DNA of 43,020 nucleotides from an archaeon (GCA_035256265.1 DATEYJ010000020.1:1-43020), one strand, 5' to 3'. Shown: positions 13,641 through 38,251, counted from the first letter of the stretch. Numbers and translations are program-made. The notes: generated from the sequence alone by a model not told the origin.

Positions 13641-13662
13641 GAAGGTGACTGAGGTCGCCTTC
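13641..13662. repeat. GC-rich hairpin family member (GAAGGTGAC-TGAG-GTCGCCTTC)
   Basis: 9-bp stem (one G.T pair) with a 4-nt loop. Lies between stop 13630 and the likely start at 13672. The 5' flank is CTGGAAA. Confidence 0.7.
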
Positions 13663-13671
13663 AAGCTGACG

Positions 13672-13794
13672 ATGCGAAAGAAAGGCTTTCTTGATATCAG
13701 CCTGAGGACAATCGTCCTGATAATTTTCGCGGTTGCGTTCCTCGCTCTTGCAATCCTCTGGGTCTCCAGATTTTTCGGGAACATGCCTTTCTAA
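13672..13794 (+). CDS. mini class-III-signal (pilin-like) protein, 40 aa from MRKKG (55 aa if started at 13627)
   Basis: Hand-translated; below the ORF-track cut-off. Sequence is MRKKG/FLDISLRTIVLIIFAVAFLALAILWVSRFFGNMPF, that is a basic leader ending in G followed by a hydrophobic helix. The alternative ATG at 13627 overlaps the upstream stop (ATGA), but its first 15 codons are the hairpin. Confidence 0.45.
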   Translation: MRKKGFLDISLRTIVLIIFAVAFLALAILWVSRFFGNMPF

Positions 13795-13808
13795 AGCAAA
13801 TCAACCGC

Positions 13809-13817
13809 TTTTATAAA
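13809..13817 (+). promoter_or_regulatory. TATA box (TTTTATAAA) for a leaderless transcript starting near 13840
   Basis: The box centre is about 27 bp upstream of the ATG at 13840. Confidence 0.5.
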
Positions 13818-13839
13818 CGTGCATGGATAATAACTTATT

Positions 13840-14436
13840 ATGCCAAGGAAAGGTGCCATAGAGCTCAGCCTCGGTTTCATAGTGACTGTTGTTTTTGCGG
13901 TTGTATTGCTGAGCCTGGCGATAGTGTGGCTTAATAGTATTTTCCCCACGCTTTTTGGCATAACGGACGATTTGTTCCAGCAGGCCCAGACACAGATCCA
14001 GGAAACGTTCCAGAAATCGGAAAACAATTTTGCAGTCTGGCCACCCAAATATGATCTTGCCAGAGGGCGGGAGCTGAAGATGGCCGCAGGGATAGAGAAT
14101 GATGCCGGTGATGCTAACACTCATCGGTTTGTTATTAATGTTATTCCTGCTACAGCCAGCGATAGTGTCTGCTCCGGAGGAGAGCTGGATGCATGCGGTA
14201 ACCTCAAGGCAGAGATGCAGAGCTGGATTACGTGGGACAGGCAGTCAAGCAGCATTGAGATAGACAGGGTCGGCTACAGGTGGATAATTATAAATCCACC
14301 TTCCAGCACAAAACTTGGAACTTACATATTCAACGTCGTTGCATGCAAGGAACCCATTACAACTGCTTCAGCATGCACGCTTGAGACCCTTAACTGGGGT
14401 GGCAGCGCCCAGCAGTTTCAGATAACCCTCAAATAG
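13840..14436 (+). CDS. archaeal type-IV-pilin-like protein with a class III signal peptide (198 aa)
   Basis: N-terminus MPRKG/AIELSLGFIVTVVFAVVLLSLAIVWL: basic leader, Gly at -1, an acidic residue early in the mature part, then a hydrophobic helix (DUF361/PF04021-type pattern). The globular C-terminal domain has 4 Cys. Confidence 0.7.
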   Translation: MPRKGAIELSLGFIVTVVFAVVLLSLAIVWLNSIFPTLFGITDDLFQQAQTQIQETFQKSENNFAVWPPKYDLARGRELKMAAGIENDAGDANTHRFVINVIPATASDSVCSGGELDACGNLKAEMQSWITWDRQSSSIEIDRVGYRWIIINPPSSTKLGTYIFNVVACKEPITTASACTLETLNWGGSAQQFQITLK

Positions 14437-14437
14437 A

Positions 14438-14446
14438 TTTTTTCTT
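14438..14446 (+). terminator. oligo-T tract (TTTTTTCTT) immediately after the stop at 14436
   Basis: Archaeal terminators are typically T-runs. A TATA box for the next gene follows. Confidence 0.35.
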
Positions 14447-14488
14447 CAGTTCGCCTTCTATCCATATGCAGCTTCCATCTATCCCGGA

Positions 14489-14497
14489 TTATATATT
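14489..14497 (+). promoter_or_regulatory. TATA box (TTATATATT) for a leaderless transcript starting near 14519
   Basis: The box centre is 26 bp upstream of the ATG at 14519. Confidence 0.5.
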
Positions 14498-14518
14498 CCA
14501 GCTAACCAATACTATGGT

Positions 14519-15001
14519 ATGGACGTCTCACTGATTTTCGGGATAATATTCACGCTCATTGTCATCGGTCTGCTCCTTGTCTTCGGAGGGGAGCAGATTG
14601 CCAATATCCTTGGTTTCGGAGGGCAGGCCCAGGTCCTGAAAACAATGGACAACCTGAAGAACAAGGTTGATGACATATACCGCCTCGGAGAGGGCTCGAG
14701 CGAGCAGTTCACGCTCTCTTTCCCCAAGGAGTACAGGCTATGCTTCTTCAATTCCTCGAACCCCGCAGACAGGTTCTATTCCGATAAGTCCATGACGTGG
14801 GACCCAGACTCGACCGTGAAATACGTTATAAACGCAAGCCGCTTCAACGTCTGGTACCACAGGGGTGAGGATGATGCAGCAGGGAGCGGGAAGAGTATTC
14901 CCTACCTAGAGATGCCCACGGAGAATAACTTCTGCGCCACGGGAGGAAAGAAGGTCTACATAGTCAAGAGATACGACTGGGTCGAGGTAGAACCGTTTTG
15001 A
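14519..15001 (+). CDS. pilin-like protein with an N-terminal hydrophobic helix (160 aa)
   Basis: N-terminus MDVSLIFGIIFTLIVIGLLLVFGGEQ, followed by a globular domain. Confidence 0.6.
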   Translation: MDVSLIFGIIFTLIVIGLLLVFGGEQIANILGFGGQAQVLKTMDNLKNKVDDIYRLGEGSSEQFTLSFPKEYRLCFFNSSNPADRFYSDKSMTWDPDSTVKYVINASRFNVWYHRGEDDAAGSGKSIPYLEMPTENNFCATGGKKVYIVKRYDWVEVEPF

Positions 15002-15006
15002 GAGAG

Positions 15007-15043
15007 GAGGCGGCAACATTGCGGGCAGAGCTTGCCGCCTCCG
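15007..15043. repeat. extended hairpin related to the GAAGGCGGC family (GGAGGCGGCAA-N15-TTGCCGCCTCC)
   Basis: 11-bp perfect stem with a 15-nt loop, in the 67-bp gap between genes 14519..15001 and 15069..16214. Confidence 0.65.
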
Positions 15044-15068
15044 GTATAGAGCCCGCTAAGGGTGAAAT

Positions 15069-16214
15069 ATGCTGGCTGTCCACAGGATTTTCCAGATGAT
15101 CTTCGGGATAATAGTGTCAGTTACACTTCTTTACTTCCTCATAAGCTATTCCGGGGACTACCAGTGCACGCAGAAGGACCTGCAGAGGGCGAAGATACTC
15201 AAGGCCTTCTCTGACCAGTCCAGGGATGTCTACCTTACAGGGATATCCACCAACTTCACTCATTTCTCCAGATATAACTTCTCCTCCTGCTACATAAAGT
15301 TCCAGGATAGGGACGTACCGCAGATGGAATGCGTGGGCTCTGACACCTCCTGCCATGGTGTACAGGTTTCGGGAATTCCCATAGAGACCCCTGCACTGTT
15401 CTATCCGGGAAAGGAAGTCTACATGGGAAGGGACACCCTGGATTACGGCTGGTGGGCCTTCAATATAGTGGAGGCGATGCCGGACACCGTCTTTGTCTTC
15501 GATCCTATAGAGGGGACGGAGGAGAACTGGCAGGTCATGAGGGATATAGTGGAGCACCTGCCTGACACCTCTGACGACTGGAGTGTTGTGGAGGTCGGAT
15601 TTGCCTTCTGCGACGGGTCTGAGATACTTAATGTGTGTGGGGGGCAGCCATGCAGCAAGCAGGAGTTCCTTTCCGTTCTTGACGCGCCGCCTTCTGCCAC
15701 GTCCAGATGCACGGCAAGCCTGAAGGCCAACATGAGGCTTGTCACGATATCCAATTCGTGCAGCAACTCCTTCACGGAGAGAGATGTGTGCATAATCCCT
15801 CCGAATTCAAAGGGTGTGGGGAACGCCTTCCTTGTGGGCTCTGCAAAGGCCTATGTATGGAAGGACCCGCTTGACTTGGTGTCCCTTGCCCTAGGCGGCT
15901 CCGGGAAGGATGATTTCGGCAAGACCGCGGGAGAGAGACTTTACAGCTACAAGAATTCCCTGCTCATGGGAAAGCTTTCCCTTGCCTCTGAAATGATGTC
16001 AAAGAGGTGCGTCCTGGTAGCGGGGAAAATCCCGGAGGAGACAGGATGCGGCTCTGTATACATAGAGCTTTCCCAGGTCCTTGACAGGATTCCAGGAAAG
16101 GACTACCAGAGCCTTTCAGATATGTACGAGCTGAATGACAGGCTGAATGAGGCAAAGGCACTTTACCAGAGCCTTGTTGAAAAGGGATGCGAGAGGAGTG
16201 AATATGGAATGTGA
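15069..16214 (+). CDS. membrane-anchored or pilin-like extracellular protein (381 aa)
   Basis: N-terminus MLAVHRIFQMIFGIIVSVTLLYFLISY. GGTGA Shine-Dalgarno-like motif 5 nt upstream. Cys-rich globular part. Confidence 0.6.
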   Translation: MLAVHRIFQMIFGIIVSVTLLYFLISYSGDYQCTQKDLQRAKILKAFSDQSRDVYLTGISTNFTHFSRYNFSSCYIKFQDRDVPQMECVGSDTSCHGVQVSGIPIETPALFYPGKEVYMGRDTLDYGWWAFNIVEAMPDTVFVFDPIEGTEENWQVMRDIVEHLPDTSDDWSVVEVGFAFCDGSEILNVCGGQPCSKQEFLSVLDAPPSATSRCTASLKANMRLVTISNSCSNSFTERDVCIIPPNSKGVGNAFLVGSAKAYVWKDPLDLVSLALGGSGKDDFGKTAGERLYSYKNSLLMGKLSLASEMMSKRCVLVAGKIPEETGCGSVYIELSQVLDRIPGKDYQSLSDMYELNDRLNEAKALYQSLVEKGCERSEYGM

Positions 16215-16722
16215 GATTCTCGGGGCAAGAGTCCCGAGCAGCCTGAAAGGCCAGTCCGAGATGATGGAGCACATACTCATGGTAGTATTCATAGTGGCAG
16301 CCATACTTGCCCTGATACTCTTCCTCACATGGTGGAATGTCCAGCAGCTGAACATGGAGGCCTCCAGGAACAGGCAGGACAGGATACTTGACCTGGCCCA
16401 GCATATGATGGGGGATTACCTACTCGTGAACGAGAACTACATGCTTGACGATGCGAAGCTCACCTCGGTAAATGCGGTTTCTGGATGCGAGAAGCTCGAG
16501 AGGCTCTTTGGGACGGACTGGTACGCAAGGGTAAGGGCCCTGGACATGGAGGATGAGATTCCGTGCACGTGGAATAATTATCCTGACTGCAATTCCTGGA
16601 CCATATGCAGCTATCCGGAAGAGAGAAGGAACGTCCTTGTGCAGAAATTCCCTGCAAATGTTTACAGGAAGGTCTCGGACAAAGTAGCGCTGGCTGTATT
16701 GGAAGTGGGGGTGTACTCATAA
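16204..16722 (+). CDS. class-III-signal pilin-like protein (172 aa)
   Basis: Start at MECEILGARVPSSLKG/QSEMMEHILMVVFIVAAILALILFL. This is the same KG/Q-[SA]-E motif as gene 17405. Overlaps the upstream gene by 11 nt. Confidence 0.6.
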   Translation: MECEILGARVPSSLKGQSEMMEHILMVVFIVAAILALILFLTWWNVQQLNMEASRNRQDRILDLAQHMMGDYLLVNENYMLDDAKLTSVNAVSGCEKLERLFGTDWYARVRALDMEDEIPCTWNNYPDCNSWTICSYPEERRNVLVQKFPANVYRKVSDKVALAVLEVGVYS

Positions 16723-17330
16723 TGAGCTGCAAAACAAATGAATGGTATGATGAAGGTGGAATTTCAAGCGTCCAATCAAATTCCGCCTTCCGTCATAACC
16801 GCAGCAAGGTGCATGCCTTGAGAGCGCAAAGCAGCATGATATTGATAATAATCGTGCTCATGATGTTCGTGGCCATAGCCGTCTTCCTGCTTCAGGTGGC
16901 GAGCACTGTGAGCAACCAGGAATACACGGTCCTTTACGCGAACAGCCTCCTTCTGACTGTGATGAGGACGGACACGGGATATACGGACTCCAGGTGCAAG
17001 CTTGTGTCCGACCTCGTTGTGTGCGCATGCTTCACTCCTACATGGCGATGCGGAGATATTGAATGCGCGCAGCTCGCCAATGAAACTCTGGCAGGGTATA
17101 TGGATGTCTTTGGCAACCAGACAACTCATTTAAAATATCTTTTCACGTCCACCTCGCAGGCCCACTGCATAGACTCAGAAGGAAATTCCATGGCACTGGA
17201 AATCGGGGATAAGACTCTGAAAAAATCCAGGGAGACATTCAAGGTATTCTCTTATCCTCTCACTATTCCTAAGACTTTTGACTACAATTCGTATATTATG
17301 ACAATGCAGTTGATAATTGCAAATAAATAA
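16722..17330 (+). CDS. membrane-anchored or pilin-like protein (202 aa)
   Basis: The start overlaps the upstream stop (TAATG). It has a ~38-aa polar leader, then MILIIIVLMMFVAIAVFLLQVAS. The extracellular part has 5 Cys. Confidence 0.5.
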   Translation: MSCKTNEWYDEGGISSVQSNSAFRHNRSKVHALRAQSSMILIIIVLMMFVAIAVFLLQVASTVSNQEYTVLYANSLLLTVMRTDTGYTDSRCKLVSDLVVCACFTPTWRCGDIECAQLANETLAGYMDVFGNQTTHLKYLFTSTSQAHCIDSEGNSMALEIGDKTLKKSRETFKVFSYPLTIPKTFDYNSYIMTMQLIIANK

Positions 17331-17350
17331 ATGAACCGGATTCAGGGTAT

Positions 17351-17375
17351 TTTTCTGCATATTTTTTCTGCATAT
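17351..17375 (+). repeat. tandem direct repeat TTTTCTGCATAT x2 (period 13) abutting a TATA box
   Basis: Copies at 17351-17362 and 17364-17375, read directly. Lies in the 59-74 bp gap upstream of gene 17405. Confidence 0.7.
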
Positions 17376-17383
17376 TATATATA
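17375..17383 (+). promoter_or_regulatory. TATA box (TTATATATA) for a leaderless transcript starting near 17405
   Basis: The box centre is 26 bp upstream of the ATG at 17405. This favours 17405 over the ORF-track start at 17390. Confidence 0.5.
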
Positions 17384-17404
17384 CCAAGAATGACAATTAT
17401 TAGT

Positions 17405-19231
17405 ATGGCTAAGGGCCAGGCGGAGTTCGCAGTAATCATAGGGATAGTTATCGTCGCAGCTGTGGTTATTATTTATGCGCTCCCTAACATCACGAATCCT
17501 ATCATCCCTTCGGGGAAGTATGGAATGTTCAAGGCCTCCTTCGAGAGCCTCGTGCGGGACGGGGCGCAGGACACCATGAGCAGGCTCTCTGCTTACGGAG
17601 GCTATCCTGACAACTCCTCCTTCCAGCTCGGCTCTGTTTCTTTCCTCGGAAAGGAGGTTCCCTACTGGCAGAAGGACGGGAGTGTAAAATACCCGAATGT
17701 GAAGGACAATTTTGTCCAGGGAGTTTCTAGCTATCTTTCCAAAAACAAGGAAGGCTTTCTCCAGGAGATGAAGATGGCAGGCCTGGAAATTGGAGAGCCC
17801 AGGGTGAGCGCGAACATGCTTGCGAGCAAGATAATCATAACCGTGAACATGCCGACCAAGATAGACGGGACCAATTATCCGCAGCCTTATACCGTGGAAA
17901 TCCCGTCAAGGCTCGGGGAGATAGAGGAGTTCTCCAAGGCGTTCGCGCAGTATGACAAGAACAGCAGGCCTTTGGAGTACTATACGCTCTCCTCCATGAT
18001 AATAAGCCCTATGGAGGAGGATGTGCACAGCGTTCCCATACAGATATTCCTGACAGAGTGCGGAGAGTACGTGTTCAGGAGCTGGTGGGACATAAAGCCC
18101 AGCCTGGAGAATGTGATAAAGGCCACGCTCGCCCAGACCTACATGCCCGGGAAGGCTCCCCTGAACACCATGATGACCTCATCCTCGCCAAAATATTCCC
18201 TTGTCCCTCTTAACGGGAAGAGGTATGAGTCTCTTGATGTTAGTTTCTTCCTTCCTGACAATTTTGAGCTCACGCCCGCTGACTTCCAGTTCTCCCCTGA
18301 CCCCATAATCGCAATCTCACAGGTGATACCCATGGTGGGGCAGTGCCAGTCAGACCCTGTATATGTGAAATACTACCTCTCCTATCCAGCCATAGTGAGG
18401 GTGAAGGACCCGCTCACCCAGAATGTGTTCCAGTTCGCTGTCCATGTGTACATAGAGGATAACAAGCCCGGGGACTGGTCCGGAACTGGATATGAGACTG
18501 ACGTCCAGAAGCAGATATGCTCGAATCCCCAGTGCTCTGCTGACATCTCCCTGAAGGACAGCCTCGGGAAACCGGTAGATTATGCGGCTGTCAGCTTCAT
18601 GGGATGCAGCTTGGGAAGGACGGATTCCCAGGGTATTCTCAGGGTTCCTGCCCCGTGCGGGCTAGGGCCGCTTCAGGTTTACAAGCAGGGATATGAATCC
18701 TACGGGAGGATGCAGTCCTCTGACAGCATACGCGGGCTTTCCCTAACCCTTGCAAAAACCCCGGCAATCAGGCTCCATCTTTACGAGGTGATTGTCCAGA
18801 ACATCTCCCTCAACGGGAAGTATGACATCTCCCAGGACGGGATAAGCCCGATAGCTACGAACAGGCTCGTGTACATGAACCTGTATGACACGACCAATGT
18901 CAAGGCTTACCAGAGGGGTTTCAGCGCGGCAGGGAACCTGCTGAACTCCATGCCTGCAGGGCCTTACATAATCACGGCAAGCCTGATCTCCGCAGGCGGG
19001 GAAGAGCTCGGGGCGATTCTGGTGGACTACACGCTTTCCGAGAGCCTGGACGGGAAGGACCTTTATGTGTACCTTCCAGACAGCCTGGACTACGGGAAGA
19101 TAACGGACGAGGCAGAGAAGGCGGGCGCCACGGTGACGCTCACGAACGTGCTCACGAAATGCGGGCTTGGCCCCATCTCTCTCTCAGAAGTGAACTTTAA
19201 CGGATGCTCGGTGGGATACAATGAAGTTTAG
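17405..19231 (+). CDS. large class-III-signal pilin-like protein (608 aa) with a carboxypeptidase-regulatory/PEGA-like beta domain
   Basis: N-terminus MAKG/QAEFAVIIGIVIVAAVVIIYAL (DUF361-type). An internal segment DISLKDSLGKPVDYAAVSFMGCSLGRTDSQGILRV...QVYKQGYESY resembles CarboxypepD_reg/PEGA folds. Confidence 0.7.
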   Translation: MAKGQAEFAVIIGIVIVAAVVIIYALPNITNPIIPSGKYGMFKASFESLVRDGAQDTMSRLSAYGGYPDNSSFQLGSVSFLGKEVPYWQKDGSVKYPNVKDNFVQGVSSYLSKNKEGFLQEMKMAGLEIGEPRVSANMLASKIIITVNMPTKIDGTNYPQPYTVEIPSRLGEIEEFSKAFAQYDKNSRPLEYYTLSSMIISPMEEDVHSVPIQIFLTECGEYVFRSWWDIKPSLENVIKATLAQTYMPGKAPLNTMMTSSSPKYSLVPLNGKRYESLDVSFFLPDNFELTPADFQFSPDPIIAISQVIPMVGQCQSDPVYVKYYLSYPAIVRVKDPLTQNVFQFAVHVYIEDNKPGDWSGTGYETDVQKQICSNPQCSADISLKDSLGKPVDYAAVSFMGCSLGRTDSQGILRVPAPCGLGPLQVYKQGYESYGRMQSSDSIRGLSLTLAKTPAIRLHLYEVIVQNISLNGKYDISQDGISPIATNRLVYMNLYDTTNVKAYQRGFSAAGNLLNSMPAGPYIITASLISAGGEELGAILVDYTLSESLDGKDLYVYLPDSLDYGKITDEAEKAGATVTLTNVLTKCGLGPISLSEVNFNGCSVGYNEV

Positions 19232-23856: not shown

Positions 23857-25281
23857 ATGAAATCCCTTCTGCCTGTATTCATTCTGGCTTTTCTCATGCT
23901 GGCCGGATGTGCGCATGCCCTCCGCCTCACGGACGGCCTCTACTTCACCGTGGCCCCGAACTCCACCGCGGAGGTCTACTTCATACTCCCGGATGACCTG
24001 GGAGCAGGCCAGAGGAAGGCTGATTATTACATAACCACGGATTCCAACTGGTCCACGGACCTCACGGAGCAGATAATCACGACAGAGGAGAACAATACTG
24101 TGATAACCCCCATAAGGTTCTTCTCCTTGGACAAGAAGGAGGGGGACTGCTCGAACTACACTGTGAGGATATCTGCTCCCTCCCTGAGCCTTTCCAAGAC
24201 ATGGAAGGGAGGGGTATGCCTGTCCAAGTACATGGATGTGGACATAGCCAAGCCGGGGAAGGATCCCGGAACCGTCCTGAACAGCAATGCGGACATTTTC
24301 AGCCTGGGTTTCGCCACATATTCAAAAACTGCCAAGCCTGGGGACATATCCATAGAGCTGCTCCTGCAGTCCCAGGCAAGCCTTACCATAGACGTGAATG
24401 TGGATTCTGGGATTCCTTTCGAGCAGAAAGTCTTTGTTGTCCAGACCTCGCCAACCTCCCAATATAAAACCCTGCTTCTGAATGCCAGCAATATCCTGTC
24501 AGGGACTTATGATGTAAAGGCCACGGGAAAAGCCAGGAGCTGCTCCCTGGACTCATGCACGAGGCAGGCTCCCATGAGGCTTGTGGTTTCTGACTCCGTT
24601 CAGGAAGGGTTTTCTGTCTCCCTGTTTCCGGAGAACCTTGCCATAAAGAAGCTGGAGCCAGTGAGCTACAGGCTCACCATCCAGAACAATTACGGGGAGG
24701 AGAAGGCCTTTGTGGTGAGCGTGGAGAGGCCTTTTGACCTGGATAGTTCTCTTGTCTTGGACAGCTTCACGGTTCCAGGCCTTTCCGAGAAGACAGTGGA
24801 ATTCACCGTGACCCCGAGGAACCAGACAGGATTCTATGAGATAAAGGCCACGACAAGCTCCGGGGGCATGGACAGGCTCGCTTCCTCCTACCTCTCGGTG
24901 AATGAGATGGTGTCTGATGTCTACAGGAGCGCGGATGATATCAAGTCTCTTGCGAACTCCTCCCTGGACGCGAGCGTGGACAGAACAGTCAGGAACTGGT
25001 ACAGCTCCTACTCCAAGAGCGATGGCCAGAACCTTACAGAGTACAAGAATCTTCAGGATGCCCTGGATTCCGCAAGGAAGCAGGCCCTGTCAAGCCAGGG
25101 CCAAAATCAGACAGAGCCTGGGCAGGGCGACGATATTCCCCAGGAGGAAGAGAAACCTGAATCTCCTTTCAATTTCGGGATTATTCTCATCCCTGTGGCT
25201 CTTGGGATGGGTGTTTTCTTAGTCCTGCTTTTGCTGAGGAAAAGAAAGGGTAGCGGACAGGAATTCCTGGAACTGAAATGA
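23857..25281 (+). CDS. lipobox/signal-bearing surface protein with a C-terminal TM anchor (474 aa)
   Basis: N-terminus MKSLLPVFILAFLMLAGCAHA (signal plus LAGC lipobox). Contains CARDB/Ig-like beta segments. C-terminal TM helix IILIPVALGMGVFLVLLLL followed by RKRKG. Confidence 0.7.
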   Translation: MKSLLPVFILAFLMLAGCAHALRLTDGLYFTVAPNSTAEVYFILPDDLGAGQRKADYYITTDSNWSTDLTEQIITTEENNTVITPIRFFSLDKKEGDCSNYTVRISAPSLSLSKTWKGGVCLSKYMDVDIAKPGKDPGTVLNSNADIFSLGFATYSKTAKPGDISIELLLQSQASLTIDVNVDSGIPFEQKVFVVQTSPTSQYKTLLLNASNILSGTYDVKATGKARSCSLDSCTRQAPMRLVVSDSVQEGFSVSLFPENLAIKKLEPVSYRLTIQNNYGEEKAFVVSVERPFDLDSSLVLDSFTVPGLSEKTVEFTVTPRNQTGFYEIKATTSSGGMDRLASSYLSVNEMVSDVYRSADDIKSLANSSLDASVDRTVRNWYSSYSKSDGQNLTEYKNLQDALDSARKQALSSQGQNQTEPGQGDDIPQEEEKPESPFNFGIILIPVALGMGVFLVLLLLRKRKGSGQEFLELK

Positions 25282-25290
25282 TTTTGGCTG

Positions 25291-25312
25291 GAAGGCGTCC
25301 GCTGACGCCTTC
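25291..25312. repeat. GC-rich hairpin family member (GAAGGCGTC-CGCT-GACGCCTTC)
   Basis: Perfect 9-bp stem with a 4-nt loop, in the 38-bp gap between convergent genes 23857..25281 and 25320..27020. The 5' flank is GGCTG. Confidence 0.8.
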
Positions 25313-25319
25313 TGTCAAG

Positions 25320-27020
25320 TTAGTAGAAATCCTCGTCAGAGAACTCGTCCTCTTCCTTGTCCCCGCCCTCTTCCAGCTCTTCTTCTCCCGCATCCTTCTT
25401 CTTCCTGAACTTCTTGAAGAGGAAGAACCCCACCAGAGCTGCTGCAGCCACTCCCCCACCTATCAAGGATATTGTTACTATGTCAGGGCCCGGAGGCGTT
25501 TCGGGGATTTCGCATATGTTGCTGCTTGAGCATGTCTCTCCTGCATTGGTGCAGTCGCTGTCCGCGCAGCATTCCACACATGAGCCCCCGCAGCACACGC
25601 CTCCTGTGCATGAATCACTATCGCTCTTGCCTTCGCATTCCAGGGGAGGCGATATATTGGATTCGCACTTCTTGTCTGCTGTGCAGTATTCGTCCGTTCC
25701 TGTGCAGTCAAAAGAGGTGCAGCACTCCCCTCCGGATATGCACGAGCTATCGCAGCATATACCATCCGTGCCGCAGGAGTTCAGATTGGCCTTGCCTTCA
25801 CACTCGCCTGCCTGGATGCACTTGTACTCGGAACTGCATGTTCCGGAGATGCAGTTCAAATCGCTGCAGCACTCCACCGCACCTATTATGCATGTTCCGC
25901 TGCAGCATCTTCCCCCGAGGCACAGCTCCAGATCATCCTTCCCTTCGCACGTTACTGACTGACCTATGACGCTTATCTTGAATTCCAACGGTATCGGGAA
26001 CTGCATGATATCAGAGGACATGGTCGCTGTCGTGGAGATGTTGGTGTCGGACTGTATATTCTTCAGGGTGATTGAAAGGAACGTGCTCTCGTTCGGCCTG
26101 AGGATTGTGCTTTCGGCGCTTATGCTCAGGTATCTGCTTACGTCAACAGGCTCTGAGGGGAGAATAAAATCTATCGCGGTTATGTTCTCAGTCCCTGTGT
26201 TGGTCAGCTTGAACTTCTTGAGCGTGAAGGTCTGGCCGGAGTTTATGGTGGTTGAATAGCTTATCTTGCTTACTACCTGGCAGGTGGTCCCTGTGCAGGA
26301 CTCCAGCCTTATGTCCCCCACGGGGACTGTGCCGCCTCCCACTGCGATTTTCGAGACGCTTCCACCGAAATCGCCGCCAGCGTTGATTGTGAATTCTATG
26401 TAGTAGTTACCGTCGGGAAGTGTGAAGTTGCTTGATATGTATTTCAGGTATTGCGGGTTGTAATTCATGTACCCAGCCTTTACCTCACCAAGCGTGTCTG
26501 CCGAATATATCTTGTAATTCATCCTGCTGGCCGCGCTGGCTGCCACCGCTGACATGTAAACCGTCTTGTCTATCACGTCCACGCGGGGAGTTATCGTTAT
26601 CCCTCCTACATAAAGCTCTTTCGTGCTGTTCAGGGTCTGGCCATACTTTATGGCATTGACCTCTATAGTATAAGGAATCCCGTACGTGGGCGAGGGGAAG
26701 AGGCTGGGACCGCATATGTCTGTTTCTGTGTTGGAAAAATAGCACACCCACCTGTTGTTCGTGTCCCTCGGGGGGAAGCCTCCAATACCTCCCTCTATCC
26801 CGTAAAATATCCAGTTGAGGCTCACGGGCTCCGTGGGCAGGGCATTGGGATTGGCTATTATCAGAAAGCTCGAGTTGACTGAGAGGTTCGAGGGTATTAT
26901 GGTGATTTCAGGTGGGTCTATAGCCCTCACGCCTGGCAGGAACAGAAACGCAGCAAACGCTAGAATCCAGTAGTATTCTGGCCTGAAGGTGGCAAAGCCG
27001 CCTTCTTTCCAACGTGTCAT
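25320..27020 (-). CDS. surface protein with a triple CEGK cysteine-knot-like repeat, TM anchor and acidic cytoplasmic tail (566 aa)
   Basis: Signal YYWILAFAAFLFLPGVRA, followed by beta domains. Three ~45-aa repeats CEGK..[LS].C..G.CC...C...ECC...DC......C. TM helix IVTISLIGGGVAAAALVGFFLF followed by KKFRKKKDAGEEELEEGGDKEEDEFSDEDFY. Confidence 0.75.
   Translation of the reverse strand: MTRWKEGGFATFRPEYYWILAFAAFLFLPGVRAIDPPEITIIPSNLSVNSSFLIIANPNALPTEPVSLNWIFYGIEGGIGGFPPRDTNNRWVCYFSNTETDICGPSLFPSPTYGIPYTIEVNAIKYGQTLNSTKELYVGGITITPRVDVIDKTVYMSAVAASAASRMNYKIYSADTLGEVKAGYMNYNPQYLKYISSNFTLPDGNYYIEFTINAGGDFGGSVSKIAVGGGTVPVGDIRLESCTGTTCQVVSKISYSTTINSGQTFTLKKFKLTNTGTENITAIDFILPSEPVDVSRYLSISAESTILRPNESTFLSITLKNIQSDTNISTTATMSSDIMQFPIPLEFKISVIGQSVTCEGKDDLELCLGGRCCSGTCIIGAVECCSDLNCISGTCSSEYKCIQAGECEGKANLNSCGTDGICCDSSCISGGECCTSFDCTGTDEYCTADKKCESNISPPLECEGKSDSDSCTGGVCCGGSCVECCADSDCTNAGETCSSSNICEIPETPPGPDIVTISLIGGGVAAAALVGFFLFKKFRKKKDAGEEELEEGGDKEEDEFSDEDFY
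26985..27005. repeat. GC-rich hairpin family member (GAAGGTGGC-AAA-GCCGCCTTC) inside codons 6-12 of gene 25320..27020
   Basis: 9-bp stem (one G.T pair) with a 3-nt loop. It encodes KEGGFATF on the minus strand. The 5' flank is TCTGGCCT. Confidence 0.7.
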
Positions 27021-27419: not shown

Positions 27420-28103
27420 ATGGAAGCCCAGAAAGTCCTTAAGGGGGAGAAGGTCGTCATACTGGCAGACCACAGGGAGATAGCCTCGAACGTGACAAGG
27501 CACCTCAGGCAACATGATGCAGAGATAAGGGAGATACAGCTCAAGACAGGGGACTACATAGTCTCGGAAAGGGTGGCTGTGGAGAGGAAAGCCATCCCGG
27601 ACTTCCTGCAGTCGATAATAGACCAGCGGCTCTTCAAGCAGATGGAGGAGCTTGCATGCTCGTATGAGAAGCCCGTGCTCATCCTGGAGGGGAATCCCGA
27701 GGCCATGTTCTTGGAGAGGAACATGCACGCGAACACCGTGCGGGGGGTCCTCTCCTCCATAGCCATAGATTACAGGATTCCCATAATCTGGACGCATAAT
27801 TCGAAGGAAACTGCCGCCCAGATATACTGGATGGCCTACAGGGAGCAGGTGCAGGAGAGCAAGGGCCTGCAGATAAGGTGCAACAAGAAGGTGGCCTCTC
27901 TGCCGCAGCAGCAAGAGTTCCTGGTGGCAGGCCTCCCGAACGTCTCGAATGTGCTCAGCAGGCGCCTTCTCAAGCACTTCGGGACTGTGCGGGACGTGTA
28001 TGACGCCACTCCGGAGGAGCTCATGAAGGTGGAGGGAATCGGGAAGGAGAAGGCCAAGAGGATATGGGAGCTCATAAACGCTGGGTATGAAGAAAAAGAC
28101 TGA
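27420..28103 (+). CDS. ERCC4/XPF-type structure-specific nuclease with C-terminal HhH2 (stand-alone Hef nuclease part)
   Basis: ERCC4 motif GDYIVSERVAVERK. C-terminal (HhH)2 LVAGLPNVSNVLSRRLLKHFGTVRDVYDATPEELMKVEGIGKEKAKRI. Only 227 aa, so there is no helicase part. Confidence 0.85.
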   Translation: MEAQKVLKGEKVVILADHREIASNVTRHLRQHDAEIREIQLKTGDYIVSERVAVERKAIPDFLQSIIDQRLFKQMEELACSYEKPVLILEGNPEAMFLERNMHANTVRGVLSSIAIDYRIPIIWTHNSKETAAQIYWMAYREQVQESKGLQIRCNKKVASLPQQQEFLVAGLPNVSNVLSRRLLKHFGTVRDVYDATPEELMKVEGIGKEKAKRIWELINAGYEEKD

Positions 28104-28135
28104 TGTTTTTATAATTTTTTTGATATATCGTTTCT

Positions 28136-28345
28136 ATGGCAAAATCCGAAGAAAGGAAATACACAAAGGAAGAGGTTCTTGAAATAGCAAAAATATATCA
28201 TAAATATATTGATGGCCAAATGCGCACATTTGCTATGGAGGAAGGATGTACCAAATTCTACCGGAATATATTGTCAGAAATGAAAAAATATCCGGATATT
28301 TTTGAGGATGATATTCGATGTATTGAAAATGCTATAAGTTACTAG
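28136..28345 (+). CDS. hypothetical small protein (69 aa) in a strongly AT-rich patch
   Basis: ORF only. Preceded by T-runs and TTTTTATAAT. Its stop abuts the convergent pyrG stop. Confidence 0.4.
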   Translation: MAKSEERKYTKEEVLEIAKIYHKYIDGQMRTFAMEEGCTKFYRNILSEMKKYPDIFEDDIRCIENAISY

Positions 28346-32267: not shown

Positions 32268-32277
32268 CTTGCCTCGG

Positions 32278-33551: not shown

Positions 33552-33569
33552 AACACACGACCTTCGATT

Positions 33570-33592
33570 GAAAGTGCCCGCGAGGCACTTTC
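33570..33592. repeat. divergent hairpin family member (GAAAGTGCC-CGCGA-GGCACTTTC) in the tfb leader/promoter region
   Basis: 9-bp perfect stem. The flanks GATT...TCTCTCTGG resemble those of the tRNA-intron copy (GGATTGAA...TTCTCTCT). Confidence 0.55.
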
Positions 33593-33823
33593 TCTCTGGT
33601 TTGTTACTCCCTTTCAGTAATTATGAGGGTGAATTTGAATGTTATATTTTGCACACACCCATTTATAAAGCTTTCGGTTTTTTAAGCATAAGTTTAAATA
33701 TTTTTACCATTATCTGGTAATACCTTTTTAAAGTTAACGGAATTGCTCAGGATTTTACCTAAAAACAAGGAAGGAGAGACTCATAATCCTGTTCAAGAGC
33801 TATCTGACCTCCCATCTTTCAGG

Positions 33824-35482
33824 TCAGTAGTCTTCCATCCCGCCGCCCGGGCCTCCCGGAGGCATGGGAGGCATCTTGCCGCCTCCTGAGCCGGAGGCTG
33901 AGATGACATCATCTATCCTTAATATCATCTCAGCTGCCTCTGAAGCGGACTTTATCGCCTGCGTCTTTATCTTCAGCGGCTCTATCACCCCGAGCTTTAT
34001 CATGTCCTGCACTTCGCCTGAGAATACGTCCAGCCCGAACGTGACGCCCTTCTTGTCGTGCTGCGACCTCAGGTTCGCGATCTTGTCTATCGGGTCAAGC
34101 CCTGCGTTCTCGGCAAGGCTCCTTGGTATCACTTCCATGGCTTCTGCAAAGGCATTTATGGCGAGTTGCTCACGACCCTTGAAAGACTCGGCGTATTTCC
34201 TGAGCTCCCTCGCGACCTCTATCTCAGCCGCCCCGCCTCCTGCCACTATCTTGCCAAGCTCCAGGGCAGCTGCTATCCCCTTTACCGCGTCCTCCATGGC
34301 CCTCTGCACCTCGTCTATCACGTGCTCTGTGCCTCCCCTTATGAAGATGGTCACGGCCTTGGGCTGCTGGCACTCCTCCACGAAAATCATCTGGTCCCCA
34401 GCGATCTTCCTCTCCTCCACGCGGCCCGCATATCCCAAGTCGCTCTTGGAGAGCTCGTTCAGGTTGCTCACTATGCTGGCTCCGGTTGCGCGGGCCAGGG
34501 CCTCCATGTCCGATTTCTTCACCCTCCTGGCCGCAAGTATCCCGGCCTTTCCCATGAAGTGCTGCGCCGCATCGTCTATGCCCTTCTGGCAGAAGACCAC
34601 GTTCGCTCCGGACTTCACGACCTTGTCCACCATGTCCCTGAGCATGCGCTCCTCCTGCTCTATGAATGCCTGCATCTTCTCCGGGGAGTTTATGCTTATC
34701 TTGGCATCCCCCTCCAGCTCCTTCACCTCCAAGGCGGAGTCTATGAGCGCGACCTTGGCCTTCTCTATCTTCTTTGGCATGCCTGAATGCACGACCTCCT
34801 TGTCTATGAGCACGCCGTTTATGAGCTGGCTGTCATTTATGGAGCCGCCCTCCTTCTTCTCGAGCTTTATGTTATCCACATCTATGCTCACGACCGAGCC
34901 TTTGACCTCCGCGATCTTCTTTATGGCCTTGACCGCGATGTCTGCCAGCTCCTCAGAAGCCTTCTCAGCGGACTTCCCTGTTATGGCTGTGTTGGCTATC
35001 TGCCTGAGGCTGGCCTCATCATTGATGTCAATCTTCCTTGAGATGTTGTTCAGGACCTCAAGAGCCTTCATCTTGGCCATCCTGAAGCCCTTGGTTATGA
35101 CAGTGGGGTGTATCTCCTGGTCCAGAAGGTCTTCCGCCTTCTTGAGCAGCTCCCCGGCAAGCACCGCCGCCGTTGTTGTCCCGTCACCAACAATCTTGTC
35201 CTGGGTCTTGGCCACTTCCACCATCATCTTCGCTGCAGGGTGCTCTATGTGCATCTCCTCGAGTATGGTCGCCCCGTCATTAGTTATGACCACATCACCA
35301 AGGGTGTCCACGAGCATCTTGTCCATGCCCTTGGGCCCCAGCGTGGTCCTGACTGCGTCAGCCACCGCCTTGGCGGCGGCTATGTTCGACCTCTGGGCGT
35401 CCCTGCCCTTGCTCCTGAATGTCCCTTCGGGCAGTATCAGAATGGGCTGCCCGCCTATCTGCGCAAATCCTGCATTTACCAT
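33824..35482 (-). CDS. ths: thermosome subunit (group II chaperonin)
   Basis: [45 protein letters not shown] and the C-terminal [10 protein letters not shown] tail. Start set at MVNAGFAQ (35482), which is preceded by a GAGGTGA Shine-Dalgarno-like motif. Confidence 0.95.
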
Positions 35483-35641
35483 ATCATTCACCTCTCTTGG
35501 AATCAAACATGAGCGTATGCCTTGAGGGCAAAACGCATAGTATATCTAGCTGATTAACTTATAAATGCTTTGCTATGAAGAAGGGTTTTTATAATCATTC
35601 CGTCACATATAACTACAATTGCCTGAAGGTGAATTGAGTTG

Positions 35642-35663
35642 GAAGGCGTCCGCAGACGCCTTC
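35642..35663. repeat. GC-rich hairpin family member (GAAGGCGTC-CGCA-GACGCCTTC)
   Basis: Perfect 9-bp stem with a 4-nt loop. First unit of the array upstream of the tRNA. Confidence 0.8.
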
Positions 35664-35697
35664 GGGCCATTGTCGCCTTCTAGCCACAAACCGGAGT

Positions 35698-35719
35698 GAA
35701 GGCGACAAGAGTCGCCTTC
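35698..35719. repeat. GC-rich hairpin family member (GAAGGCGAC-AAGA-GTCGCCTTC) followed by TAGCCA
   Basis: Perfect 9-bp stem. An extra unpaired copy of the 3' arm plus tail (GTCGCCTTCTAGCCA) lies at 35672-35686. Confidence 0.8.
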
Positions 35720-35737
35720 TAGCCAGAACGAGAGATT

Positions 35738-35767
35738 GACGGCTTTATCCAATAGGCACAAGCCGTC
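35738..35767. repeat. related hairpin (GACGGCTT-N14-AAGCCGTC) followed by TAGCCA, 5 nt before the tRNA
   Basis: 8-bp stem. The tail CGTCTAGCCA matches the two upstream units. Confidence 0.6.
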
Positions 35768-35807
35768 TAGCCATTAATGGGCTCGTAGCTCAGTCGGTAG
35801 AGCGCCG

Positions 35808-35876
35808 AACGCGCTGGATTGAAAGAATGAAGGCGACAAAAGTCGCCTTCTCTCTAAGAATCTCGTGCGTGCGCAG
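35808..35876 (+). other. tRNA intron 1 (69 nt, position 29/30) with a full hBHBh' motif
   Basis: Outer helix 35799-35801/35878-35880. Central 4-bp helix GCGC 35802-35805/35871-35874. 3-nt bulges at 35806-35808 and 35875-35877. Inner helix 35809-35814/35865-35870. The intron carries hairpin 35829-35850. Confidence 0.75.
35829..35850. repeat. GC-rich hairpin family member (GAAGGCGAC-AAAA-GTCGCCTTC) inside tRNA intron 1
   Basis: Perfect 9-bp stem. The flanks CTGGATTGAAAGAAT...TCTCTAAG resemble those of copies at 38230 and 33570. Confidence 0.8.
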
Positions 35877-35885
35877 GTCTTATAA

Positions 35886-35925
35886 GGCCCGCTTCCGCTC
35901 TGTGGAGGCGTTGCATGGCGTAGAA
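35886..35925 (+). other. tRNA intron 2 (40 nt, position 38/39, or equivalently 37/38 shifted by one A) with a relaxed BHB
   Basis: Central helix TTAT 35880-35883 pairs with GTAG 35920-35923 (2 WC + 2 G.U). Good 5' bulge AAG at 35884-35886. Inner helix GCC 35887-35889/GGC 35917-35919. The 3' site sits in a 2x1 internal loop rather than a clean bulge. Confidence 0.55.
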
Positions 35926-35946
35926 GCCGAAGGTCCTGGGTTCGAT

Positions 35947-35988
35947 GTGAGACAGAATGTGTCAAGAGACACCTTCCTTCCACGAACT
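35947..35988 (+). other. tRNA intron 3 (42 nt, T-loop position 59/60) with a BHB motif
   Basis: The T stem 35936-35940/35990-35994 acts as the outer helix. Central helix TTCG 35941-35944/CGAA 35983-35986. Bulges ATG 35945-35947 and CTT 35987-35989. Internal hairpin GTGTC-AAGA-GACAC at 35959-35972. Confidence 0.7.
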
Positions 35989-36029
35989 TCCCAGCGAGCC
36001 CATTTATTCTTTTCTTCCAAGAATGTCTT

Positions 36030-36371
36030 ATGAGCAAAGTCGGTGAATGGGCAAAGGAGAACAAGAATCTCCTTTTGAAGTCAGGAATCTTTGCGGGCGC
36101 AAGCTTCCTGGATTATTACCTCACGGATTTGGGAATAGCAAAGGGGAGGATAGAAGAGATACATCCTGTTGTTAGTTCTTACCTTAGCATGTACGGGAAC
36201 ATGGGCCCCTATCTATTGAAGGGCATTATGACTGCTGGCGGAATCTTCGGCATGTATCTTACGGATAAAAATCCTGAGAAAACGAGATATACAAGCAACC
36301 ATGTTTTCTGCATAGGGACAGGCGCTTATTTTACCGCTTCTGCCGCCTGCCTCTACCACATCCTGCGCTAG
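36030..36371 (+). CDS. small multi-pass membrane protein (113 aa)
   Basis: Hydrophobic segments IFAGASFLDYYLTDLGI, LLKGIMTAGGIFGMYL and CIGTGAYFTASAACLY. No motif recognised. Confidence 0.5.
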   Translation: MSKVGEWAKENKNLLLKSGIFAGASFLDYYLTDLGIAKGRIEEIHPVVSSYLSMYGNMGPYLLKGIMTAGGIFGMYLTDKNPEKTRYTSNHVFCIGTGAYFTASAACLYHILR

Positions 36372-36799
36372 CCGGCCGCGAGCTTCTTCTTCATGGGCAT
36401 GAGCACTATCTTGGCTATCTGCTCCATCATCTTGGGCTGGGCCGCCACTATGTCCATGGCTGAGACTATCCCCACCAGCTGGTTCTCCGTGACCACGGGG
36501 AGCCTCTTGACCCTCTTCTCGGTCATGGCGTTGGCCGCGTCCTCTATGTGGGTGTCAGGCCCCACAGCCACGACCTCCTTGGTCATCACTTCCTCCACCT
36601 TTGTCTTGGAGGGGAGCTTGTTCTTTGCCACAACCTCTCTGATTATGTCCCCCTCTGTCAGTATTCCCGCGAGCATCTCCTTCCTGACGACTATGAGGCT
36701 GCCTATTCCGGCATCCGCCATCAGCTCCGCGGCCTCCTGCACTGTGGAGCCCGGGGAAACTGTCTTCACGTCAGTTGTCATTATCTCCTTCACAAACAT
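36368..36799 (-). CDS. CBS-domain pair protein
   Basis: 143 aa. Two CBS repeats: VKEIMTTDVKTVSP...IGSLIVV and VEEVMTKEVVAVGPDT...VKRLPVV. Confidence 0.8.
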   Translation of the reverse strand: MFVKEIMTTDVKTVSPGSTVQEAAELMADAGIGSLIVVRKEMLAGILTEGDIIREVVAKNKLPSKTKVEEVMTKEVVAVGPDTHIEDAANAMTEKRVKRLPVVTENQLVGIVSAMDIVAAQPKMMEQIAKIVLMPMKKKLAAG

Positions 36800-36810
36800 A
36801 TTTTCACTCT

Positions 36811-37389
36811 CTAATCTCTCCGTGAGCTCTCCATCCTGGGGACGAAGACCCTGTACCTGTCCTTGTCGTTCAGCTCCTCCAGTATTCTCCTCACGATCAT
36901 CTTCTCTGGGTCGGGTAGCAGGGGCACCCTCGTCTTGAGCTCCGCGAAGCTCTCGAAAGGCTTGGTCTTCCTTTCCTCTATTATCGCCCAGAGGTGGCGC
37001 TTGCCTATCCCTGGAAGCAGCTCAAGCTGGTGCATGCGAGTGGTGAGCTGGCCGGATTTGTTGAAGAAATCCAGGAACTTTCCCGGAGTGTCCTTCACGA
37101 TATTCTCCACAGCCGGCTGGACCTCGTCCTTTGCGGCTGTCGTGAGCTCCCTGAACTCCATCCTCCCCCTTATGTACTTCACCTTGTCCCTCTTCCCGTC
37201 GCCTATGTAGACCCTCTCCCCTATCTTGAGGTTGGAGTCCTCCCTCACTATGACCTCCAGCAGGGAGAAGAACAGGTCTCCCATGACCTGGGCCACGGGC
37301 TGGGACCTCTCCATGTCATACCTTCCGTGGGAGAGGTAGTCCAGGGTCACGCCCCACTCGTCCTTCTTGAGCTTCTCCTTAGGAATCAT
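36811..37389 (-). CDS. DUF655-family protein (conserved archaeal RNA-binding/HhH protein of the L21e-rpoF cluster)
   Basis: 192 aa. VTLDYLSHGR...LLEV...RVYIG...MHQLELLPGIGKRHLWAIIEER matches DUF655. The gene order L21e-Rpo4-DUF655 is the conserved archaeal arrangement. Confidence 0.8.
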   Translation of the reverse strand: MIPKEKLKKDEWGVTLDYLSHGRYDMERSQPVAQVMGDLFFSLLEVIVREDSNLKIGERVYIGDGKRDKVKYIRGRMEFRELTTAAKDEVQPAVENIVKDTPGKFLDFFNKSGQLTTRMHQLELLPGIGKRHLWAIIEERKTKPFESFAELKTRVPLLPDPEKMIVRRILEELNDKDRYRVFVPRMESSRRD

Positions 37390-37470
37390 AAAATCACTGT
37401 TTCTTGTTGAGGTTGGTTATAGAATTGGCTTGCGGTTTTAAATTCGTTTGAGCGGCCCCTTTCAAAGCCG

Positions 37471-37797
37471 TCAAGCGTATTTTTTCACGATAGAAATTAT
37501 CTTCTTCCTGTCTTCCTCAGAGGGGCTCACGACCTCGTTCGCGAACAGCACCCTGAGCTCCTCCAGCTCCTGGGGCATGTGGTTTATTATGGAGACTATG
37601 TGCCTCTCCTTCAGCCTCTCTATCTTGCCAAGCTCCTCGGCCAGCTCTGCCGCGGACTTCTCGGAAAGCTTGGAGAACTTCCTCAGGTGGTCCAAAGCAT
37701 TTTTCTGCTCGTAGCTGAGCTCCTTTTCCTTCTCCTTCTTCTCCAGGGCCTTCTTCACCTCGGCCCACGGGATGACCTTCTCGCTTTCTACTTTCAT
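37471..37797 (-). CDS. rpoF: DNA-directed RNA polymerase subunit Rpo4/F
   Basis: 108 aa from MKVESEKVIPWAEVKKALEK...SYEQKNALDHLRKFSKL...IINHMP. The start was moved downstream of the hairpin at 37825-37845, which the ORF track had translated as REGGFAAF. Confidence 0.85.
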   Translation of the reverse strand: MKVESEKVIPWAEVKKALEKKEKEKELSYEQKNALDHLRKFSKLSEKSAAELAEELGKIERLKERHIVSIINHMPQELEELRVLFANEVVSPSEEDRKKIISIVKKYA

Positions 37798-37824
37798 GCC
37801 TTTCGCCTCGCTGTTGTCAACGGA

Positions 37825-37845
37825 GAAGGCGGCGAAGCCGCCTTC
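37825..37845. repeat. GC-rich hairpin family member (GAAGGCGGC-GAA-GCCGCCTTC) between rpl21e and rpoF
   Basis: Perfect 9-bp stem with a 3-nt loop, in the 72-bp intergenic spacer. Confidence 0.75.
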
Positions 37846-37869
37846 GCGCAAGATATGCTTTGTGAAATA

Positions 37870-38157
37870 TTACTTGCCCGGCCTTAAATGCTCGGGCCTG
37901 AGCATGAGGGTCTTCTCCTTGTCTCCGAGCTTGACCTTCACCACGTAGGCCCTCCCCCTCTTCCTTACTATCTTGCCTGTCTTCCCCTTGTACCTGTAAT
38001 GGGGCATGTTCTTGGGGGAGGAGGGGTCTGACTCTATCATAACAACCTGGCCAGGGATGAACTCCCTGAGGTACCTCTCTACAGTGAACTTGGCCCTGTG
38101 AGGCCTCTTGAACTTCCTCCTGGTCCCTGTCCTGAAACCCCTTCCTGATCTTGACAT
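37870..38157 (-). CDS. rpl21e: 50S ribosomal protein L21e
   Basis: 95 aa. MSRSGRGFRTGTRRKFKRPHRAKFTVERYLREF..G..V.I..DPS....MPH.RY.GKTG.I is canonical L21e. Confidence 0.95.
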   Translation of the reverse strand: MSRSGRGFRTGTRRKFKRPHRAKFTVERYLREFIPGQVVMIESDPSSPKNMPHYRYKGKTGKIVRKRGRAYVVKVKLGDKEKTLMLRPEHLRPGK

Positions 38158-38229
38158 AGTTCACACCATAATATAACTGGTTAATTGTATGCTTTCTATT
38201 TAAATCCTTGATTCCGGATCCTCTGGATT

Positions 38230-38251
38230 GAAGGCGTCTCTTGACGCCTTC
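38230..38251. repeat. GC-rich hairpin family member (GAAGGCGTC-TCTT-GACGCCTTC) between pus10 and rpl21e
   Basis: Perfect 9-bp stem with a 4-nt loop. The 5' flank CTGGATT is identical to that of the intron copy. Confidence 0.8.

Follow-up and report, generated by a model that had tools for sequence, protein, structure and literature searches.

A dispersed palindromic repeat of an archaeal contig, likely a selfish DNA element, found between genes, within genes and in the core of tRNA introns

Bacterial repetitive extragenic palindromes (REPs) measure 20-40 bp, bear a GTAG or CGTC tag, are linked to REP-associated tyrosine transposases (RAYTs) and occur occasionally within genes, and Rickettsia palindromic elements (RPEs) are found as in-frame insertions in genes of Rickettsia (PMC3733652, PMC2817692); the latter are bacterial as well, about 100-150 bp long, and bear a CGTC tag (PMC3733652). 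REP-like palindromes have been loosely counted in archaeal genomes (PMC12306157), and the gain of tRNA introns in archaea is supposedly a DNA-level process whose mechanism is not known (PMC4090602). Here we describe a family of GC-rich hairpins dispersed over a complete 43,020-nt contig of an archaeal metagenome-assembled genome (GCA_035256265.1 DATEYJ010000020.1:1-43020), referred to as a whole as the window. The hairpins are likely to be copies of a lineage-specific selfish palindromic DNA repeat of about 39-42 nt, resembling REPs, RPEs or very small MITEs (miniature transposable elements with inverted repeats). The kind of repeat itself is already known, whereas its link to the gain of tRNA introns is unusual: one unit is found in four states, between genes, presumably translated in conserved genes, in 5S rRNA and as the core of bulge-helix-bulge (BHB) introns of tRNAs. 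We know of no description of short palindromic repeats in frame in essential genes of archaea, and no paper on this family, or tying a dispersed repeat to archaeal tRNA introns, was found in the literature, coverage of which was incomplete.

The family shares with REPs and REPINs (REP doublets forming hairpins) the short GC-rich palindrome, the high copy number, a mostly extragenic location, often just past genes, a one-sided tetranucleotide tag, presence or absence at the strain level and occasional intragenic copies (PMC3733652, PMC2817692). It differs from them in the tag, which is CCAG/CTGG at 3 nt from the stem instead of GTAG/CGTC, in the archaeal host, in copies that are nested whereas REPINs are head-to-head dimers, in the many copies located in open reading frames (ORFs), in frame, or in RNA genes, and in the absence of a RAYT from the scanned ORFs of the window and from the related locus L136. 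The likeness to RPEs lies in apparently selfish palindromes that survive in frame in conserved essential genes, adding hydrophilic peptides, and also in RNA genes; however, the unit of about 40 nt is unrelated to the longer RPEs in sequence and tag, and its copies in tRNA genes are flanked by BHB splice motifs and are probably spliced out. Like MITEs and palindrome-associated transposable elements (PATEs), the repeat is non-autonomous, short, palindromic and dispersed, its two hairpin types differing internally and sharing their ends; unlike typical MITEs, it is far shorter, has candidate terminal repeats of only about 7-10 nt that are degenerate on one side, and has revealed neither a target-site duplication nor a parent insertion sequence. 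Compared with the tRNA introns known to have been transposed in Thermoproteales (Fujishima et al. 2010, summarised in PMC4090602), the lineage is different and the core of the introns is a dispersed genomic repeat, with further copies in protein genes, in 5S rRNA and between genes; the intron thus appears to be one fate of a general repeat and not an element specific to tRNAs.

The consensus of the unit consists of a degenerate ATT-CTGG-N3, the hairpin GAAGGYGNC-loop-GNCGCCTTC and the tail N2T-CCAG-AAT, and the core hairpin measures 21-22 nt, with a GC-rich stem of 9 bp and a loop of typically 3-4 nt (range 3-6). When copies were oriented by their better flank, the consensus became ..A....RGATN-(GAAGGYGNC loop GNCGCCTTC)-NNT-CCAG-AAT, and the flanks CTGG, GGATTGAA, TTCT.. 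and TAGCCA, listed in a preliminary description of the window, turned out to be pieces of it. The unit is asymmetric: the 3' tail N2T-CCAG-AAT is better kept, the 5' side is a degenerate complement of this tail, and CCAG, which reads CTGG on the opposite strand, forms a one-sided tag 3 nt from the stem, with AAT after it. The candidate terminal repeats ATT-CTGG/CCAG-AAT are palindromic in the consensus and degenerate on one side in individual copies; a conserved 4-bp CTGG/CCAG helix of the flanks around a 3x3 internal loop was rejected, as only 53% of the cells were paired. Comparison of filled and empty sites (a tRNA T-loop, a gene for a 566-aa protein and loop D of 5S rRNA) gives a unit length of 38-40 nt. 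Seventeen of 113 copies (15%) are nested inside outer arms GAAGGYGNN/NNCRCCTTC, with spacers of 10-12 nt. A second hairpin type, GACGGCTT-N14-AAGCCGTC, was found at 13 loci, among them window 35738-35778, L137, L142, L168, L173, L178, L190, L202 and L227; it has the NNT-CCAGAAT tail in common with type 1, its loop frequently contains CAAT, and it lies upstream of tRNAs, in one tRNA D-arm intron and once nested within type-1 outer arms.

In the window, the exact pattern GAAGGCGNC-N(2-12)-GNCGCCTTC occurs six times (25291, 35642, 35698, 35829, 37825 and 38230), compared with 0.00 expected from 100 dinucleotide-preserving shuffles of the window, and the 7-mer GAAGGCG is found 38 times vs 6.5 expected. 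A scan for all hairpins with stems of at least 9 bp showed that the majority of them belong to the GAAGGYGNC family. A covariance model (CM) was trained on 74 oriented copies, of which the window supplied five. It detected ten loci in the window at E<0.05, against none expected by chance: the five training copies (38230, 35698, 25291, 13641 and 26985), four that had not been used for training (35642, 35829, 37825 and 33570, the last with E=0.039), and 35955. Nine of the eleven copies listed in the preliminary description are members of the family, of which 13641 and 26985 keep the family hairpin but form a G.T pair at position 6 of the stem and 33570 is a GAAAGTGCC variant; the copy at 35738 belongs to the second type, a copy at 35955-35976 (GAATGTGTCAAGAGACACCTTC) had been overlooked, and 15007-15041 is another hairpin with a 10-bp stem and a 15-nt loop (CM E=4.4). 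This last hairpin, GAGGCGGCAA-N15-TTGCCGCCTC, lies 5 nt past the stop of the gene 14519-15001. The first 13.6 kb of the window contain no copy of the repeat. The regularity of a CRISPR array was not found, the array before the tRNA gene having irregular spacing and mixed unit types and the other window copies being solitary. Units outside the tRNA gene are as follows.

13627..13674, minus strand: repeat unit with hairpin 13641-13662; CM score 44.6 bits on the minus strand vs 21.7 on the plus strand.
25277..25324, minus strand: repeat unit with hairpin 25291-25312; exact match and CM.
26971..27017, minus strand: repeat unit with hairpin 26985-27005; CM and gene comparison.
33556..33604, minus strand: divergent unit with hairpin 33570-33592, GAAAGTGCC...GGCACTTTC; CM, E=0.039.
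35625..35680, plus strand: long nested form with outer arms GAAGGTGA (35625-35632) and TCGCCTTC (35673-35680) and inner hairpin 35642-35663.
35686..35733, plus strand: repeat unit with hairpin 35698-35719 and tail TAG-CCAGAAC; CM.
35738..35778, plus strand: type-2 hairpin GACGGCTT-N14-AAGCCGTC at 35738-35767, with tail TAG-CCATTAAT.
37825..37845, no strand assigned: hairpin GAAGGCGGC-GAA-GCCGCCTTC, orientation weakly defined.
38216..38263, minus strand: repeat unit with hairpin 38230-38251; top CM score in the window.

The hairpin at 13641 lies 11 nt past the stop of the plus-strand gene 13235-13630 (NCBI gene calls); as its unit is on the minus strand and the neighbouring genes are on the plus strand, it is antisense to them, and its stem position 6 is a G.T pair on the plus strand and an A.C mismatch on the minus strand. 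The unit at 25291 occupies the 38-nt gap between the convergent genes 23857-25281 (plus) and 25320-27020 (minus), and that at 26985 falls within a 39-nt in-frame insert right after the ATG of the 566-aa gene, which encodes M-TRWKEGGFATFRP-. The hairpin at 33570 is 19 nt 5' of the tfb start codon. The nested form 35625-35680, with which the array before the tRNA begins, folds as a single rod (-35.7 kcal/mol, z = -5.5), and the end of the type-2 unit 35738-35778 corresponds exactly to tRNA position +1. The unit at 38230 separates the Pus10 stop (38290) from the conserved L21e promoter, with a half-site CCGCCTTC beside it at 38264-38270; its 22-mer on the minus strand is identical to the T-loop intron copy of the near-identical contig L001. 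The hairpin at 37825 lies within the 72-nt spacer from the L21e stop (37870) to the rpoF start (ATG 37797). The placements given earlier (Pus10|L21e, L21e|rpoF, the tfb leader, a tRNA intron and the array before the tRNA) are correct. The rpoF gene at 37471-37851 is called with 126 aa in ENA/Logan (TTG 37851, reading through the hairpin) and with 108 aa by NCBI (ATG 37797), and the related species supports the short 108-aa form. The repeat thus misleads gene callers, as shown by the differing rpoF starts and by the tRNA gene described below, which was missed by ARAGORN and Rfam.

The turnover of the unit is seen from comparison with close relatives. Five contigs, L001-L005, are 98.6-99.7% identical to the window, and their indels across the repeat-bearing stretch are confined to the tRNA locus: intron A has 36 nt and no hairpin in L001-L003 (69 nt in the window), intron C contains a perfect GAAGGCGTCAAGAGACGCCTTC in L001-L003 and a decayed copy in the window, and L002 lacks the unit 35686-35733 plus the preceding spacer (39 nt). 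The sole other length difference among the near-identical contigs is an unrelated strain-level gene indel at 28100-28345, where L001 (~14673-15783) has, in place of 246 nt of the window, a 352-aa gene whose domains are LMWPc phosphatase and HD. The unit was gained, lost or swapped within less than 1% of sequence divergence.

In a related species (L126/L127), which is syntenic with the window and whose TFB falls into the same 90% cluster, L126 keeps one intact copy, located between the convergent genes, and one decayed copy. The copy at 25291 is the only one of the window that is intact at the orthologous site (L126 18893-18914), with a different loop; L126 has no hairpin at Pus10|L21e or L21e|rpoF, in the tfb leader, where the 566-aa gene starts or in the tRNA leader array, and its T-loop has no intron at the position of intron C of the window. 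Leaders of orthologous tRNA-Glu genes hold different hairpins. The comparison of orthologous intergenic regions proposed in the preliminary description hence found L126 to lack most window copies, and presence or absence between 99% identical strains and between related species favours REP/MITE-like mobile palindromes among the explanations suggested there.

The distribution of the family was assessed by a metagenome scan with the CTGG-flanked pattern, which yielded 120 loci, 61 of them GC-rich and 59 below 56% GC. The GC-rich loci behave like chance matches. The 59 low-GC contigs carry archaeal 5S, 16S and 23S rRNA, aIF2-gamma, EndA, ABCE1 and PolB and are therefore archaeal; they contain 103 strict copies in 243 kb and 221 CM strand-hits. 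The density in these related contigs is about one copy per 2.4-4 kb or, without the copy that triggered retrieval, about one per 4 kb, which equals that of the window, and three further copies were found in 10 kb of this species located past the start of the window. A scan of genome contigs with the bare hairpin served as a control and gave, among the matches listed, single chance matches per locus in GC-rich bacteria and one archaeal locus, L011. In IMG/VR, the hairpin with its tail had zero matches, leading us to reject viral carriage, and the bare hairpin gave single chance-like matches. The window itself is archaeal, encoding TFB, a thermosome subunit, L21e, RpoF, Pus10, PCNA, PFOR and other archaeal proteins; two proteins of the same 90% TFB cluster carry the submitter label Candidatus Aenigmarchaeota.

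An unbiased scan for the two 7-nt arm cores showed that stem position 8 is Watson-Crick paired in all six window copies and in 86 of 92 copies from the related low-GC contigs, compared with 11 of 61 (18%) chance matches in GC-rich bacterial contigs, taken as a control. This agrees with the compensatory changes reported before at this position, and stem complementarity is clearly maintained. The selection on structure proposed at the same time stands as far as pairing within the strand is concerned, but the pattern is not good evidence for selection on host RNA at each locus. Three-nucleotide loops are present in 19 of 28 G8 copies vs 15 of 81 A8/T8 copies, and this dependence of loop length on the position-8 variant suggests subfamilies derived from few master variants. 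One-step intermediates with confident orientation comprised five A.C and two G.U on the oriented strand, showing no bias in these small numbers, and stems are fully paired in 13 of 17 copies located in long ORFs vs 71 of 79 others. The subfamilies, A.C being as common as G.U, and the near-perfect copies in ORFs indicate a constraint on the element rather than on the host RNA at each site, and we infer that this constraint is propagation of the element via a folded single strand.

It is doubtful, though less so than for the other alternatives considered below, that the hairpins are host-selected cis-acting RNA elements, such as stabilizers of transcript ends, termination or processing sites or signals in tRNA leaders, with only incidental mobility. 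Such roles could be seen in the four window copies located 8-38 nt past stop codons, in the copy of the convergent gene pair, kept in the related species with a changed loop, and in about ten copies of both hairpin types whose ends, with the tail CCAGAAT(C), are 11-12 nt upstream of tRNA position +1; moreover, the units are very stable as RNA (-16 to -36 kcal/mol; z-scores -2.3 to -6.8), and bacterial REPs have secondary roles of this kind (PMC3733652). However, the copies are found in both orientations relative to transcription (15 sense vs 8 antisense in same-strand intergenic regions), near-identical strains differ in their presence, A.C mismatches occur on the transcribed strand (for example, at 26985) as frequently as G.U, and copies are located inside ORFs and 5S rRNA and nested in each other. 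Most of the tRNAs found have no such leader, and a T-run typical of intrinsic terminators does not follow the hairpins, whose tails read NNT-CCAGAAT. A K-turn or L7Ae site was rejected upon inspection only, as the conserved unpaired G.A pairs are absent, and we regard the resemblance as coincidental.

The placement of copies relative to genes is consistent with insertions filtered by selection, which would be neutral between genes and kept in frame in surface loops of proteins. Crude ORFs cover 83% of the DNA and contain 45 of 113 copies, the remaining 68 being outside, a depletion from ORFs (p ~1e-24), so that the location is mostly extragenic, as for REPs, with a real intragenic minority. 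ABCE1 has two in-frame inserts, both corresponding to gaps relative to the solved P. abyssi protein (PDB 3BK7); PolB has three in-frame copies; and further ones are found in a class II aminoacyl-tRNA synthetase, EndA, aIF2-gamma, GT2, ScpB and a PALP enzyme. In-frame copies in conserved protein genes are presumably translated. The peptide most commonly encoded is GRRQETPS, and other frames and the antisense orientation are also used, which excludes a peptide repeat. The statement that selection acts on the structure rather than on a protein thus holds with respect to the several frames and both orientations, but not for the sizeable minority of copies that are in frame in conserved genes.

In RNA genes, units sit at the tips of hairpins, namely in the tRNA T-loop, D-arm and anticodon loop, in loop D of 5S rRNA and in the loops of other copies. 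The 148-nt 5S rRNA gene at L136 859-1006 contains a unit in loop D that lengthens helix IV, whereas the related 114-nt gene at L145 807-920 has a plain GCAA loop. Insertions at such helix tips would be tolerated in RNA genes, being either spliced out or retained. In the archaeal rRNA operon L176 137-7630, two repeat copies lie between the 23S gene and tRNA-Ala; the 23S match there covers 4960 nt vs a model of 2987 positions and the 16S match 1701 nt vs 876 positions of its model, which suggests large rRNA introns or insertions.

The tRNA gene downstream of the array shows the connection with introns most directly.

35779..36002, plus strand: tRNA gene with three introns; BHB scan and alignment to relatives.
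35808..35876, plus strand: tRNA intron A, 69 nt; strict BHB, the core being a unit with hairpin 35829-35850.
35947..35988, plus strand: tRNA intron C (T-loop), 42 nt; BHB, the core being the decayed hairpin 35955-35976.

The unspliced gene was not detected by ARAGORN or Rfam; after removal of introns A and C, ARAGORN detects a tRNA with a further intron of 38 nt by the anticodon loop CUUAUAA. We tentatively assign it to isoleucine, with the anticodon UAU and a C27.A43 mismatch. The UAU anticodon is unusual in archaea, which mostly use a modified CAU. An alternative assignment, tRNA-His(GUG), was rejected because the segment concerned is not conserved in L126, which identifies it as an intron. 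The 6-bp inner helix of intron A covaries, being of different sequence in the window, in L001 and in L126 and paired in each of them, and the decayed hairpin of intron C is GAATGTGTC-AAGA-GACACCTTC. The sequence ATTGAAAG in intron A resembles a crRNA 5' handle; there is no array, and this candidate was dismissed on inspection only as a coincidence.

BHB introns (3-nt bulge, 4-bp helix, 3-nt bulge at the junctions) with a copy as their core are introns A and C of the window and those in L170, L190 (8700) and L136 (581), and copies form T-loop, D-arm or anticodon-loop introns in several tRNAs. In the T-loop introns the tail reads CGAG/CGAA and pairs with the exon TTCG, from which it follows that the splice motif is assembled locally and not carried by the unit. 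We give about even weight to the proposal that tRNA introns arise by insertion of the unit at the tip of an RNA-gene hairpin, where a BHB formed by the tail and the exon lets a broad-specificity EndA cut, and that the same process accounts for the 5S hairpin and possibly for inserts in the rRNA spacer. Splicing probably explains why the tRNA copies are tolerated, and insertions in tRNA genes would persist since the splicing endonuclease removes them as BHB introns. If this proposal is true, it would be an observed DNA-level route of archaeal tRNA intron gain tied to a REP-like repeat that also resides in protein genes. Introns with a unit core differ between strains that are 99% identical, and the tRNA locus offers paired filled and empty sites for testing one route of intron gain. 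The related contig L202 encodes, at 447-1721, a 424-aa tRNA splicing endonuclease with N-terminal, N2 and catalytic domains, a domain set by which it may be of the three-unit, broad-specificity type; this EndA gene itself bears an in-frame repeat copy, RRRQESPS, at aa 321.

A more general reading, in which every copy is a mobile BHB intron, excised and circularised by EndA/RtcB and spreading by reverse splicing or a related RNA route, is very unlikely. Although copies form the core of true BHB introns in several tRNAs, the hairpin with N3-CCAG-AA matches the content expected of an excised intron, and intron transposition in Thermoproteales is documented without a known mechanism (PMC4090602), a strict BHB encloses 18 of 113 copies, which is the mean of a flank-swapped control (18.0, maximum 25). 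The T-loop tails CGAG/CGAA fit the exon TTCG, making the motif a local one, and copies in frame in coding regions need no splicing.

The least probable explanation, in which a dimeric DNA-binding protein (such as a regulator, chromatin protein or insulator) uses the inverted repeat as its operator in double-stranded DNA, would account for the perfectly symmetric half-sites GAAGGCG/CGCCTTC at fixed spacing and for some copies near promoters, but duplex binding does not need a complementary variable position (86/92), loops vary from 3 to 6 nt, copies lie in ORFs, introns and rRNA, and the one-sided tail indicates a stranded element.

We return to the likely explanation, a selfish palindromic DNA repeat. 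It would spread as DNA through an enzyme provided in trans, which may recognize the folded single-strand hairpin and the CCAG tag in the way HUH/Y1 transposases do with REPs; such recognition of the folded strand would preserve stem complementarity in master copies. Stabilisation of transcripts may be a secondary role of the copies located at gene ends.

Several observations weigh against this explanation. The gene for a cognate RAYT/Y1 HUH transposase is usually flanked by REPs, and no transposase or RAYT-like gene was found among the Pfam-scanned ORFs of the window or of L136, the densest locus. The terminal inverted repeat is weak, its only well-kept pair being G:C at -4/+4 (63/74 copies), and none of the filled and empty sites compared (566-aa gene, T-loop, loop D of 5S rRNA and tfb leader) shows a visible target-site duplication, their boundaries being ambiguous by a few bases. 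The fixed distance of 11-12 nt to tRNAs and the interspecies conservation of the convergent-pair copy could reflect a host function. Finally, the tfb leader of L126 has no hairpin and yet has a ..GTTC-AATCGAG tail, and intron A of L126 contains a small hairpin followed by a TAGGAAT tail; tails without the family hairpin at these two sites are explained by replacement or gene conversion as well as by transposition.

Two other loci were noted. At L377 12291-13187, 898 nt are without a called gene in three assemblies and contain two similar small ORFs with hydrophobic N-termini and cysteine-rich tails, each preceded by a TATA-like box, and at the equivalent position of L379 a 207-aa gene is called. 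In the window, the 2058-aa ORF at 6958-13134 contains one MG2 (alpha-2-macroglobulin-like) domain and probably encodes a giant protein of the cell surface.

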